Positions 1 through 50,398 of a DNA stretch of 64,000 bases are shown in pieces. The stretch is from a virus, in IMG/VR virus record IMGVR_UViG_3300010381_000012. One strand, written 5' to 3'. The notes under the pieces are model-generated. The model saw nothing but the letters and a program-made list of their open reading frames with translations, was not told the DNA's origin and searched no databases. The first letter of the stretch is position 1. The number at the start of each line of letters is the position of its first letter. Made by a program: the position numbers and the translations under genes.

Positions 1-240
1 GCAATGCAGCGTCATGCCGAGAATGCGGCGGTCGAGTGCGTTGTAGTAGCCGTCGGTATGCCAGTTGATCGGCTTGTGGGTGTAGGGAATGAAGTCGCCG
101 CGTACGCTGCTGCCTTCTTCCCCGGCCGGAGTGATGCTGGACAGCCCGTCCTCGTCGGCGAGGTAGTTGCCTTCCAGGCGGGCGAGGCCGAGCTGTTGTG
201 CCAGTTGGTGTGGCAGCGACTTGTCGGCGGCGGGCAGGTG
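1..240 (-). pseudogene. N-terminally truncated TauD/TfdA-type Fe(II)/2-oxoglutarate dioxygenase fragment (runs off window start)
   Basis: Minus frame 240->1 reads HLPAADKSLPHQLAQQLGLARLEGNYLADEDGLSSITPAGEEGSSVRGDFIPYTHKPINWHTDGYYNALDRRILGMTLHC with an HxD motif (WHTDG). Upstream the frame enters the tmRNA and meets TAA at 340-342. Confidence 0.7.
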
Positions 241-37338: not shown

Positions 37339-37401
37339 GAACTTGACTCCATCGATTTGCGGGCCTACCCTCTTCTTTGCTCGAGATCGGGGTAAGCCCT
37401 G

Positions 37402-37444
37402 GTTTCACTTCCAGCCCCTACCGGTTGCCGCCGGTGGGGGCTTT
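37402..37444 (-). repeat. Solitary CRISPR-repeat-like hairpin (weaker copy)
   Basis: AGCCCCCACCGG-CGGCAA-CCGGTAGGGGCT followed by GGAAGTGAAAC. Confidence 0.4.
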
Positions 37445-44935: not shown

Positions 44936-45729
44936 ATGGCTGACTGCTTTTTGCTCGAACCGGAAGAACGGACCATTCGCGTGGTCGAATACATGAAGGC
45001 CACCTGGACCGGAACGCCGCTCGAAACCAGCGAGGATCAGGCCCTCGAACGGAAGTTCCTGAAGTACAACGCGGCCACCGGCAACATGGTCATCGAGGAC
45101 CACGTTGGCCTGCTCAAGGAGCGCGCCCGCCGGACCATCACCAACTTCACCGGGCTTCCCGGAAAGGACGGCAAGGACATCCCGTTTTCGCCGGCGAACC
45201 TCGACCGCCTCTGCGAGATGCACGCCGGTCTCATCAACAAGGTTATGGCCGAGCTCCGCAAGCCCGACGCCCTCCTGGTCGAGGCCACCGAAAAAAACTC
45301 CTAGCCTGGGGACGCTGGAAAATATGGGGGCTGGATGGCGATCCATGCGAGGCGTGCCGCGACGTCTACGAGATGGACGACCTCCCGCCCCCCTGCGGCA
45401 CCCCGGAGTGCTCGAAGCCGGCCCCGCTTTTTCCCACCAACGCCATCCCATGGAAAATCTGGCAGACCGCACACCAGTTCGACCGGAAGACGCGGACCGA
45501 GTTCATGGTTTCACTGGCCGGGGCTCAATCCCTGGCCGTGCCGCTGCCCATCACGAGCGAGATTGTCGACCGGCTGCGCAGGGCCTACCGGGAGCCCGTG
45601 GAGACGTTGGAACGGGTGCTCAAGCTCGAAACTGAGGTGTACCCGCTGATTCTGGAGCGGTGGAAGCGAAACAAGGACAAGCCAGACGGGGGCGGGAGCG
45701 GGAATCCGTGGGGAGAGGAAGAAGGGTAA
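44936..45729 (+). CDS. Tail assembly chaperone G (44936-45304) and -1 frameshifted GT product
   Basis: Slippery A-AAA-AAC at 45292-45298; -1 frame open to 45729 (LAWGRWK..CEACRDVYE..PPPC). Confidence 0.85.
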
Positions 45730-45755
45730 GGGGCCGGCGAGAGTCGGCCCCTTTT
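45729..45755 (+). terminator. Intrinsic terminator ending head/tail transcript
   Basis: AGGGGCCGGC-GAGA-GTCGGCCCCT-TTT. Confidence 0.75.
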
Positions 45756-45762
45756 GCGTTTG

Positions 45763-46398
45763 TTAGAGTTTCGCGGCCAGCACCTTTCCTCTCTCTAAAA
45801 CCGTCTCATCCTCGACCGCCGCCAACCCAGCCCAGCCCAGAAATTGCGCCATGGTCACGCGCTCACCTTCCGGCAGCCGTGCATTGATGCGTGACAGACC
45901 TGCCGCCAGCATCCGCTTGACCTCAGGGGCTACGTGGATGCGCAAACGTCCCTCGCGATCGTCTTGACGGCGTTGCTTGTACCGATCCTGGGGCTGCCGG
46001 CGATCACCCTCGGCGACAGGCGGCGGAACATCCCGGAGGCGCGCCTGCTTCGCAATTTTCACGGGTTTTAACCCTTCCTTGCATGCCTTGACCTTGACCG
46101 CGCCGACGCTGCGCTTGAGCGAGGCAGCAATCTCCTCAACGGATTTCCCGCCCTCAATCATCTCCCGCATGCGCGGAAAATCCTGCGTCCACGACTTGCC
46201 AGCCGTCTTACTGTAGAGCGCGCCAGCATGGCGGTAGTGCTCGGCGTACCATTTTGCAGCCGCCACCGTAGACGTGTACCAATATCCGGCACGCTCTTCT
46301 CCGTCACATAGATTGTTTTTTATTGCCTGCACAAGAGTCGTTCGGTCAACGCCCATCCGCTTTGCTTCCTGTGCGGCCGAAATATCGTATTTTTGCAT
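45763..46398 (-). CDS. Double-HTH DNA-binding protein (Aca-like candidate)
   Basis: SAAQEAKRMGVDRTTLVQAIK and KSVEEIAASLKRSVGAVKVK; RBS GGGGTAGGGG. Confidence 0.7.
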   Translation of the reverse strand: MQKYDISAAQEAKRMGVDRTTLVQAIKNNLCDGEERAGYWYTSTVAAAKWYAEHYRHAGALYSKTAGKSWTQDFPRMREMIEGGKSVEEIAASLKRSVGAVKVKACKEGLKPVKIAKQARLRDVPPPVAEGDRRQPQDRYKQRRQDDREGRLRIHVAPEVKRMLAAGLSRINARLPEGERVTMAQFLGWAGLAAVEDETVLERGKVLAAKL

Positions 46399-46432
46399 CC
46401 CTACCCCAGCGCAGTAATTGCACCATAGTGGT

Positions 46433-46473
46433 GTTTCAATCCACGCTCCGCCATCTTCAGATGACGGGGCGAA
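46433..46473 (-). CRISPR. Solitary type I-C-like CRISPR repeat unit with extended stem (no array)
   Basis: TTCGCCCCGTCATCTGAAGATGGCGGAGCGTGGATTGAAAC versus recalled Desulfovibrio I-C repeat GTCGCCCCCCACGCGGGGGCGTGGATTGAAAC; last 14 nt identical. Confidence 0.7.
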
Positions 46474-46481
46474 GCATGACG

Positions 46482-46724
46482 TTATACCCTCACCCTGCAA
46501 ACAACGTCTCCGTTGGGGTAAACATCAAAAGCGCAAGGTGAATATTCGGAGTTTCTGTTCAAAAACCAATCCAATTCGGAAAGTCCGTCGTCGCCCGGTT
46601 CTTCTGAAAACGTCCTTCCGATGTTTATTTTTGCATACCACCCATCCATATTCCCATTGCCTTGCCATTCGAGCTGATACTTTACGTCGTCAAGCCATAT
46701 TGATTTTGGTAAACGGTGTATCAT
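46482..46724 (-). CDS. Small acidic protein (Acr candidate)
   Basis: 80 aa, D/E/W rich; GGGAG RBS. Confidence 0.65.
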   Translation of the reverse strand: MIHRLPKSIWLDDVKYQLEWQGNGNMDGWYAKINIGRTFSEEPGDDGLSELDWFLNRNSEYSPCAFDVYPNGDVVCRVRV

Positions 46725-46744
46725 TTCATTTCTCCCTTATTCCA

Positions 46745-47377
46745 CTAATCCCAATAGGCGCTCTCGGGCAGCCAGTTATCCAGTACGGCGCGGGCCTCGT
46801 CCTCGCTACCGCCCTCAGCCAATATCGCCACGGCCTTGGAGCCAGCGGAGGCCTTGTGGTGGTTGCTGGCGCAAGAGTAGCTTTCGGCCTTGAGGTAGAG
46901 AGCGGCGCGGGGGAACTGTGCGGCGAGGTCAGACGACGAGACGGCTGGTTTGGTAGGAGGGTTGACGCCGTCGTTGCCCTCGTCTTTCATCATGCGCTCA
47001 AATTCTTCCCGGTAGCGGGCCTCGTCCGCACGGGTGGCACGCAGTTTGGCAAGGCCAGGAACGGCCAGTTCGAGGGCGTCCTCGCGATGATTACGAGCCG
47101 CGATATAGTTGTCGCGGTATTCGGCCAAGGCCTCGTCAAAGGCAGGCTTGGCCCCGATGGCCATAACATACCCACCCCAAAAATAATCGACAGGGTCTTT
47201 TCCGGCCTTGCGGACCATGTCCACCGCGAACTTGGGGAGCGGGTAGTCCGATTTGAAATTCAGAGGGAAATCGAAATCCTGGGTCCTGCCGGCCTTAGAA
47301 ATTCGGGCCTTGCCAGCATCCGTATCAACCTCAATGGTTAGTCCAGCCAAGTCCCGGAAAATTTCGCGCATTGCCAT
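46745..47377 (-). CDS. Hypothetical protein, first gene of accessory operon 2
   Basis: AAGGAG RBS; 210 aa; strong coding bias. Confidence 0.8.
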   Translation of the reverse strand: MAMREIFRDLAGLTIEVDTDAGKARISKAGRTQDFDFPLNFKSDYPLPKFAVDMVRKAGKDPVDYFWGGYVMAIGAKPAFDEALAEYRDNYIAARNHREDALELAVPGLAKLRATRADEARYREEFERMMKDEGNDGVNPPTKPAVSSSDLAAQFPRAALYLKAESYSCASNHHKASAGSKAVAILAEGGSEDEARAVLDNWLPESAYWD

Positions 47378-47453
47378 TTTGGAGTCTCCTTTCGGGGCGT
47401 ATTCTCGCCCCGGTCAGGGTTTGCGGGCCGGGCCGCTTCCCGCCAGCAAGAAA

Positions 47454-47482
47454 AAACTAGCGCGTGTAGAAACTTTTTGCAA
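47454..47482 (-). promoter_or_regulatory. Leftward promoter of accessory operon 2
   Basis: TTGCAA-17-TAGTTT with T-rich upstream tract. Confidence 0.5.
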
Positions 47483-47581
47483 GAAAAATTTCAGTCCGCG
47501 CAAAAAAGTTTCGGTGCTCGCATTATGGCCTAAAAAAGGCCGCCCTCCCGAGCGGCCCATATCCTCTTATTCTCCCCTGCC

Positions 47582-48920: not shown

Positions 48921-49090
48921 GTTTCCCCCTTGGGAATACTGCTAATCAGCATTAGCGGCATTGTCAACCCGGCCCGCGCGAAATTTTCATCATGTCAAGA
49001 AAAAAACCACTCGTCAGGGCTTGCTCTCTCATGCCGGCAGTTGGTATCGGTTTTTCGAAAATATCAAGAAATGACAAGGGGTCACAAGAA

Positions 49091-50398
49091 ATGACCAAGC
49101 ACACTCTCTTTATTCTATGTCAGATTTGTCTCTCATTTATTGGATGGAGCCAATGCGATGCTTTTGCCGCTCCCCCCGCGCCTGAATGGGTTTTACTTAT
49201 GAGCGGCAACCAGGGTGATCTTCTTTGCAATAAGGCTGGCATACAGGACGATGGAAGCTCTTTCAAAAGGATATTATGCAAGACAAATATCGACGATTCC
49301 AACAGGGCCATGCTTAAATATATTGATAGCGCCATAGATTTTTCTAGCGCATACGTTTCATATTCTGAAGTCGAATTCAACTGCCAAGAGCTAAAATATC
49401 ATCTTATTCAAGATTCAGTTTTTGGCCGTCCCAACAGATTATTATACAAGAGCACAAAACAATACCCTGTCGGCCAAGAATATGAAGGGTCGACGATGTA
49501 TAATGTGCTAAAAAGGATGTGCGAACTTTCAGGCCAACCACTTGGCGTTGCGCATACGGAGAGTCAGACATCAGGGGACGATCCGCTTGCCAAAGCCTTG
49601 GCCGACGCCAAAAAGAAGGCAAACCGAGTATCGCCAAGCAAGATAGAGTCAACAAAAATGCAAACTAAAAGGGAAGTTTTCAAGAAAAAGTGCTGCACAA
49701 ATTACGACGACATACACAATATCTTTATCGATTTTTCACGTTTTGAGCACTTACCAAAGAAAGATGAGTTTGAAACAACAGTTCAATATAACAAAAAAAT
49801 CGAAGACCTAAGAAATGAGGCCAAGAAGATAGAAGACAGATGCTATCTGTTTTTGCTGGATACCAAGGGGGGATGGTCGCGATACAACGCCGATGACGGT
49901 ACTATGGCTTTTGGCATCAACTACCCTGGGGCAATCTTATTAAAAACAGATGTAAGCGGCTCTGATTATATTGGAGAAAGTCCGTTGGGATTAACTAAAA
50001 ACATAAAGAAAATAATTGAAACAAAATACTCTGTTTCTTTTACAAATATAGAAAGCACATCATATACAAAAACAGACAAATATAATGGGTATATACCAAT
50101 AGGTAGCGTTTCTATCGAGACAGAGAAAGCTAAAGAGCTAAAAAATAGATACGCGGTAGCGATTCTAGCGAAGCCAGAGAAAACATATAGTGACGATGGG
50201 AAACAAATATACTTCAAACATGACTATTACAAAATATCTCCAACCATACAATCACCATATGACACTCAGTTCTTAAGCGAACAATTTAGCTCTAAACTTC
50301 TAGCGGCAATCGTGATAGACACTTCAAGCGGAAAAGTCCTTAAGTACAAATCGTTCGATGGCGACACAGGATGCATCAGCAATTATGAGATCAAATAA
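49091..50398 (+). CDS. AT-rich exported moron protein
   Basis: Signal-peptide-like MTKHTLFILCQICLSFIGWSQCDAFA; AT-rich codons. Confidence 0.8.
   Translation: MTKHTLFILCQICLSFIGWSQCDAFAAPPAPEWVLLMSGNQGDLLCNKAGIQDDGSSFKRILCKTNIDDSNRAMLKYIDSAIDFSSAYVSYSEVEFNCQELKYHLIQDSVFGRPNRLLYKSTKQYPVGQEYEGSTMYNVLKRMCELSGQPLGVAHTESQTSGDDPLAKALADAKKKANRVSPSKIESTKMQTKREVFKKKCCTNYDDIHNIFIDFSRFEHLPKKDEFETTVQYNKKIEDLRNEAKKIEDRCYLFLLDTKGGWSRYNADDGTMAFGINYPGAILLKTDVSGSDYIGESPLGLTKNIKKIIETKYSVSFTNIESTSYTKTDKYNGYIPIGSVSIETEKAKELKNRYAVAILAKPEKTYSDDGKQIYFKHDYYKISPTIQSPYDTQFLSEQFSSKLLAAIVIDTSSGKVLKYKSFDGDTGCISNYEIK

Follow-up and report, generated by a model that had tools for sequence, protein, structure and literature searches.

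A probable type I-C anti-CRISPR operon with a cas3-matching RNA guide in a prophage at a Solidesulfovibrio tmRNA gene

[quoted passage not shown] This question is raised by IMG/VR virus record IMGVR_UViG_3300010381_000012, of which a stretch of 64,000 nucleotides (nt), corresponding to the minus strand of the provirus record and hereafter called the window, was analysed. Minus-strand positions 47482 to 45763 of the window hold, in this order, an operator-bearing promoter, a gene encoding 210 amino acids (A), a gene encoding 80 amino acids (B), a solitary type I-C repeat mimic, and the gene of a 211-amino-acid DNA-binding protein with a helix-turn-helix (HTH); the letters D, E, F, and G are used for cargo genes of related loci. 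A first-pass annotation had described the promoter, the 210-residue protein, the acidic 80-residue protein, the solitary repeat, and the HTH gene as a single leftward unit, and all five parts are indeed present there. The locus is here considered to be, probably, a type I-C anti-CRISPR operon of a prophage residing at a Solidesulfovibrio transfer-messenger RNA (tmRNA) gene, its RNA part being well supported and its protein parts, A and B, being candidates.

The repeat mimic and its guide

The repeat mimic (46433-46475, minus strand) is formed by an extended hairpin followed by an exact 12-nt type I-C 3' handle, GTGGATTGAAAC. Its fold was evaluated at -22.7 kcal/mol (z -3.8), and over its 3'-terminal 14 nt it departs by a single base from the repeat in the array of genome G214, the nearest host species. 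Comparison with the Rfam family CRISPR-DR9 yielded 20.5 bits (E 0.23), under the gathering score, and the stem exceeds those of the host repeats in length. Such a solitary unit, resembling the CRISPR repeat of the host lineage in both sequence and hairpin, is a feature of the elements known as Racr, as is its carriage on a provirus, here recognizable from its integrase gene and tmRNA junction, that is devoid of cas genes and arrays: searches of the provirus for cas5d, csd2, and cas3 returned none of them, and no CRISPR array was found.

Between the handle and the ATG at which the HTH gene begins lie exactly 34 nt (46399-46432, minus strand), a natural spacer length in the host species, and this guide-like segment contains the Shine-Dalgarno (SD) sequence of the HTH gene. 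In type I Cascades, position 6 of the guide, like positions 12 and 18, is flipped out and remains unpaired. The first 17 nt of the segment (46432-46416), with positions 6 and 12 left free, were used as a pattern to scan 401 Desulfovibrionaceae genomes, four of which (G214, G312, G069, and G363) contained a match. All four matches fall on the same cas3 codons (…PVVF/TTMVQF/LESLF…, TTMVQF being a helicase motif), on the coding strand and directly behind a TTC protospacer adjacent motif (PAM). Over its first 17 positions the guide agrees with cas3 of these genomes at 16, position 6 being the sole mismatch; in G214, the run of 18 with PAM was reached by none of 3000 shuffled guides, the best of which attained 12, and the next-best site for the guide in the 20-kb region of G214 shows a run of 9. 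The target is situated 1.25 kb inside the cas3 open reading frame (ORF), with pairing between guide and target ending after about 17-21 nt. No host RNA of the CreR/CreA type with the window guide was found in the G214 cas locus.

A second hairpin in the window (37339-37444, minus strand), already seen in the first-pass annotation, is followed by GGAAGTGAAAC; compared with the type I-C locus of G214, the sequence downstream of it gave a best run of 8 and no Cascade-style match.

G214 and S. alcoholivorans are members of one genus, and the tmRNA gene of G214 is the one most similar to that of the window (99%, best of 25 species of the genus). The type I-C locus of G214 comprises cas3, cas5c, and cas8c, identified above NCBIfam cut-offs and with cas3 and cas5c overlapping, followed by the remaining operon ORFs and by an array of at least 26 repeats with spacers of 33-36 nt. 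Positions 1-239 of the window matched none of the species representatives of the genus, and G214 may be a sister species of the actual host. The cas operon of G214 also includes a solitary near-perfect array repeat, set between the ORFs of cas7 and cas4 (L025:8034, minus strand); the 34 nt downstream of this repeat have no other match in the 20-kb region.

Sister prophages and divergent loci

Three sister loci were available for comparison, namely a prophage of S. alcoholivorans DSM 5433 (L002), a prophage of Solidesulfovibrio sp. DCME (L003), and a metagenomic virus (L004). In all of them the HTH gene occupies the same spot, between the chaperone and tape-measure genes, where it forms a separate transcription unit behind a terminator. 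Their repeat mimic is placed in antisense, behind a terminator and with a terminator of its own, and a -10-like TATTAT was recognized by eye just upstream.

The type I-C locus of S. alcoholivorans was located through its cas8c gene and array repeat. In the cas3-cas5 gap of strain DSM 5433 (L016:5379-5510), a degenerate repeat with GGATTGAAAC at its end precedes a guide, and a TTT-preceded site lying 79 nt upstream agrees with this guide at 16 of 18 positions, the mismatches being at positions 6 and 18; this is apparently a host-encoded CreR-like element of type I-C. The same intergenic site is matched by the guide of the L002 prophage, also at 16 of 18 positions and with mismatches only at 12 and 18, and its run of 20 was reached by none of 3000 shuffles. 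Judged from these sequences, the sister-prophage guide is a copy of the CreR-like self-regulator of its own host's I-C locus. A feature of the Cracr elements, a guide that resembles a host CreR or CreA and is directed at the promoter target of that RNA, is displayed by the L002 prophage relative to its own host and is absent from the window. The two guide classes, one directed at cas3 coding sequence and the other at the cas3-cas5 intergenic region, match only the corresponding locus types.

Since the window guide matches cas3 and the sister guides appear to copy a CreR-like regulator of the host, the element is best interpreted as a Cracr-type RNA anti-CRISPR. The anti-CRISPR reading advanced in the first-pass annotation is thereby supported, chiefly through the guide that matches cas3 behind a PAM and through those sister guides. 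Regarding the label Racr that it had used, the RNA element itself stands while the name turns out to be too narrow, the guide-bearing Cracr type fitting better.

In the L002 prophage the mimic takes the form of a two-repeat mini-array with a 32-nt spacer (L002:5860-5950, minus strand), whose second guide matches the host cas promoter region; for spacer 1, of 32 nt, no target was found in genomes G001, G002, or G214.

More divergent loci retain the association in other arrangements. In the contig L028/L042, an additional gene, G, separates A (80% identity) from B (48% identity), and behind B come a near-canonical type I-C repeat, the HTH gene, and another repeat mimic. The window and L028 alike have the mimic in sense orientation within the HTH gene leader, at about 130 nt from the ATG in L028; in L008, L043, and L042 it is found at the 3' end of the HTH gene, before a terminator. 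Overall, none of the loci fetched lacks a type I-C repeat mimic next to the HTH gene; the mimics beside this HTH family show five distinct arrangements, and their stems vary in sequence while pairing is kept. A second short repeat mimic directly 3' of the HTH gene, followed by a terminator, was observed at L028:4076-4140 and L043:6290-6400, and the mimic of L008 overlaps the last codons of the HTH gene.

Promoter, cargo genes, and regulator

The candidate sigma-70 promoter (47454-47482, minus strand), read from the sequence and kept in the sister prophages, consists of TTGCAA (47482-47477), a 17-nt spacer, and TAGTTT (47459-47454). Three operator-like GAAAYTTTTT half-sites, spanning 47469-47512 (47512-47503, 47492-47483, and, inverted, 47478-47469), overlap the -35 box, and the 76-nt 5' untranslated region (UTR; 47378-47453, minus strand) displays a hairpin (47412-47393) just before the SD sequence of gene A. 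These approximately 150 nt of promoter, operator, and 5' UTR recur in the three sister prophages, and the 5' UTR is near-identical in the window, L002, L003, L004, and L043 despite the differing first gene. The first genes behind the shared promoter are A and B in the window, A and D (97 amino acids) in L004, E (80 amino acids) and D in L002, and F (145 amino acids) and D in L003. Palindromes were also detected in two phages that are further removed: in L043 a perfect one of 11 bp has TTGCAA at its centre, and in L028 a related one encloses the promoter. When viral contigs were scanned with a 17-mer of the promoter, most of the matches were chance ones. The layout resembling an acr-aca operon that the first-pass annotation had pointed to, in which operator, promoter, and DNA-binding gene are conserved while the cargo varies, is therefore borne out across the loci.

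Gene A (46745-47377, minus strand; 210 amino acids, isoelectric point (pI) 5.1) encodes a variable N-terminal beta domain and a conserved C-terminal helical domain. Its relatives comprise 44 database proteins, none of them named, and 51 viral loci, and the alignment confines conservation to the C-terminal half. A structure model with a predicted local distance difference test score of 91 shows the beta domain, long helices, and a helical bundle, for which neither Foldseek nor VIA-align provided a convincing structural match. Residues 1-100 are weakly similar to pleckstrin homology domains (Z 6 or less), a reading that was set aside because this arrangement is too common to interpret. Exact type I-C handles behind hairpins were found no more than 4 kb from A-family genes in 6 of the 51 viral loci, covering at least three phage lineages, when about 0.1 would be expected. 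Other neighbours of the A family include ORFans, endolysins, an integrase, a TnpB-like transposase gene with OrfB_IS605/Cas12f1-like domains, and a double-HTH gene, and a contig of 294,757 bp encodes proteins identical to A and to the HTH protein. In a low-GC phage with homologues of A and D (L085:6950-7230, minus strand), a near-consensus promoter stands before four type I-C repeat mimics with short spacers (roughly 16-30 nt) between them, a set that looks like a Cracr-type array.

Gene B (46482-46724, minus strand; 80 amino acids, acidic, pI 4.6) starts 20 nt after A, has a strong SD sequence, and ends 6 nt before the repeat mimic; its GC content is 0.44, versus about 0.60 in its neighbours. 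A full HMMER search, which also returned spurious repeat proteins, identified P0054 and P0056 as true homologues (at 66% and 52% identity), which a word-indexed protein search did not find, and the relatives of B total two or three. Substitutions between B and its L028 counterpart distribute over the codon positions as 32/24/47, and on the basis of the homologues and of this coding-type pattern B is taken to be a real gene. It directly precedes the repeat mimic (6-7 nt) in both divergent phages in which its context is readable, the window and L028. The ESM Atlas offered nothing usable for B; A, B, D, E, and F have no match in Pfam, PHROGs, or NCBIfam, and profiles of A and B have none among PDB sequences.

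The HTH gene (45763-46398, minus strand) encodes a basic protein of 211 amino acids (pI 9.8), whose N-terminal winged HTH is MerR/excisionase-like and is accompanied by a second HTH, of three helices, and by a helical domain at the C-terminus. The best fold matches of the N-terminal HTH are BldC, lambda gpNu1, RacA, and RdfS, with high Foldseek probability and weak E-values, and homologues of the protein occur in Solidesulfovibrio genomes and viral contigs. A start at TTG 46500 was rejected, alignment with eight homologues placing it at ATG 46398. By analogy, the protein is a candidate regulator of the Aca (anti-CRISPR-associated) kind.

Regarding the setting, the prophage is inserted at the 3' end of the tmRNA gene (240-597), beside its integrase gene (762-1970). 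This abutment of the two genes marks ssrA as the attachment site, the tag peptide of the tmRNA being ANDYDYALAA. The rightward tail module is split by the leftward accessory block, which has the tail-assembly chaperone genes (to 45729) on one side and a 2016-amino-acid tape-measure gene (from 53150) on the other. Upstream in this block lie a ribbon-helix-helix gene, a Rha-family gene, and a gene encoding 44 amino acids, the last two closed by an intrinsic terminator (47537-47558, minus strand; 9-bp GC-rich stem and T run) that sets the 5' boundary of the unit. At its 3' boundary, a GC-rich hairpin (45728-45753) separates the HTH gene from the tail-chaperone gene that converges on it; a terminator scan found no terminators inside the unit. 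The same accessory block also holds a low-GC (0.42) gene of 468 amino acids without family match (48992-50398, plus strand), which has a hydrophobic stretch near its N-terminus, as read by eye, and is 79% conserved in the sister virus L004.

Mechanism, alternatives, and known systems

In the mechanism envisaged, host Cas5c would cut the operon RNA at the hairpin base, 11 nt before the repeat end, and Cas5c, Cas7, and Cas8c would assemble on the phage RNA, being drawn in a Racr-like manner from genuine CRISPR RNAs (crRNAs). The phage-guided complex would bind cas3 without cutting it and would lower, in a Cracr-like manner, the expression of cas3 and downstream cas genes. Binding without cleavage by Cas3 would be expected because only the PAM-proximal half of the guide pairs, as with CreR, CreA, and Cracr guides, and transcription of the downstream operon would probably be lowered too, since cas3 and cas5c overlap in G214. 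A and B, candidates put forward from their context, by guilt by association, may inhibit the same type I-C system, while the most likely role of the HTH protein is repression of the operon promoter via the inverted repeats, as Aca proteins do.

Several observations weigh against this reading. Published Cracr targets are cas promoters, not coding regions (bioRxiv 10.1101/2024.10.29.618823), and Cascade roadblocks inside genes are strand dependent in the type I-E system of E. coli (PMC4288209); the window guide is identical to the cas3 coding strand, an orientation that may or may not be the effective one. The guide is followed on its 3' side by neither another repeat nor another hairpin, and the L028 guide had no cas3 target in the metagenome scan, all seven of its matches falling outside cas3. 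The 25 spacers that were read from the array of G214 include no match to the phage, and G214 neither contains the prophage nor matches window positions 1-239. For A and B in particular, as well as for the 211-amino-acid regulator, no known Acr (anti-CRISPR protein) or Aca relative was found among Pfam, PHROGs, NCBIfam, and PDB sequences and folds, which are general libraries rather than a dedicated Acr/Aca set. The promoter is weak by consensus, its -10 box matching in just three of six positions and a consensus promoter scan not having listed it; it is nonetheless supported by its conservation across relatives.

Among the alternatives, the one to be taken most seriously, with a chance somewhat below even, is that the RNA is the only anti-CRISPR of the locus, A and B being unrelated moron genes (e.g., for other defences or host takeover) that share a variable slot and the HTH protein being a general phage regulator. 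It agrees with the lack of any link of A or B to an Acr family, with the presence of unrelated genes in the cargo slot of sister phages, and with 45 of the 51 A-family loci showing no type I-C mimic, this last count being itself a further point against the operon as proposed. On the other side, B ends 6-7 nt before the mimic in two divergent phages, as in acrIC5-racrIC1, a distant phage of low GC content likewise has A and D next to arrays of type I-C mimics, and a conserved operator followed by changing cargo is what usually marks acr loci. A different possibility, unlikely on balance, is that the mimic serves as a Cas-sensing leader, Cas5c or Cascade on the 5' end of the HTH mRNA covering its SD sequence and start so that less repressor is made and the operon is on only in the presence of an active type I-C system, an effect that could act together with the Cracr-type mechanism. 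The exact 34-nt distance from handle to ATG, the sense repeat in the HTH leader of both the window and L028, and the presence of the HTH gene beside such elements in every locus are in line with it. Nevertheless, the leader arrangement is not conserved, as deduced from the differing placement of the mimic at about 130 nt from the ATG in L028, in antisense behind a terminator in L002-L004, and 3' of the gene in L008 and L043, and any blocking of ribosomes by Cascade-bound RNA is hypothetical here. Slightly less likely again is a composite scheme in which Cascade loaded on the crRNA mimic of the regulator leader would silence the cas3/cas operon from within the gene and hide the ribosome-binding site of the regulator, the operon being de-repressed only with an active type I-C system, and A and B would be new families of I-C inhibitors that tolerate or assist the hijacked Cascade.

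The remaining two alternatives deny the guide any role. In a pure decoy of the classical Racr kind, the repeat would soak up Cas5c and Cas7, the 34 nt would do no more than lead into the HTH gene, and their match to cas3 would be functionless. Racrs need no guide (PMC10651486), and the segment lacks a 3' repeat and holds the SD sequence of the HTH gene. Even so, the match has the correct PAM, begins at guide position 1, mismatches only at the flipped position, and was attained by no shuffle out of 3000; in addition, all four genome matches fall on the same cas3 codons and the same logic, with another guide, is seen in the sister prophages, so that a pure decoy appears quite improbable. That the repeat is an inert relic of recombination with a host CRISPR array, as might be thought from its single copy, its stem longer than those of host repeats, and its Rfam score below the gathering threshold, is the least credible option and is regarded as highly improbable, given that mimics beside the HTH family occur in five arrangements with stems that differ and still pair, and that the guides track host cas loci.

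If the preferred reading, a type I-C anti-CRISPR operon with a Cracr-type RNA, is true, RNA anti-CRISPRs would not be confined to copying host promoter regulators, and a phage could choose a conserved, hard-to-mutate coding motif of cas3 as a landing site for the Cascade of its host. It would also provide a rule for finding more of them, namely matching the sequence behind a solitary repeat, skipping every sixth base, to the cas loci of the host genus. Three or four new families (A, B, D, and the 211-amino-acid regulator) recur beside type I-C repeat mimics. To our knowledge, sulfate reducers represent a phylum without characterised anti-CRISPRs. Type I-C systems are used for large-deletion genome engineering, and new type I-C off-switches would therefore have practical value.

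By analogy, the locus would work as a combination of traits of the acr-aca operon, the acr-racr bicistron, and Cracr. As in Cracr (bioRxiv 10.1101/2024.10.29.618823), a phage without cas genes encodes a repeat mimic and a guide with partial, PAM-proximal complementarity to the host CRISPR-Cas locus, co-encoded with candidate Acr genes, and the sister prophages seem to copy a CreR-like guide of the host. On the contrary, the window guide targets mid-cas3 coding sequence and not a cas or creT promoter, the window has one repeat and no 3' repeat, its full spacer-length guide doubling as regulator leader, and its host phylum is outside the three phyla listed in that work. The solitary type I-C repeat just after the gene of a small acidic protein, in one transcript and in a prophage, resembles RacrIC1 and AcrIC5 (PMC10651486), the spacing from gene to repeat being 6 nt in the window and 11 nt in acrIC5-racrIC1. 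B nevertheless shows no detectable similarity to a solved or named Acr, and Racrs are described as guideless decoys (PMC10651486), whereas the handle of the window is followed by a guide that matches cas3.

With acr-aca operons of the Aca1 type the locus has in common that inverted repeats overlap its promoter, that its small genes vary, and that a DNA-binding gene is conserved at the 3' end, all in one orientation; it differs from them in that its regulator, of 211 amino acids and three domains, matches no Aca or curated family in the general libraries searched and in sister phages constitutes its own transcription unit behind a terminator. The degenerate repeat and short guide pairing with the cas locus itself are reminiscent of host CreR (bioRxiv 10.1101/2023.03.10.532045), which is host-encoded and autoregulatory, while the elements here are phage-encoded. 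Relative to all these precedents, the locus differs in its target inside cas3, its single repeat, the use of the guide as regulator leader, its new protein families, and its host phylum.

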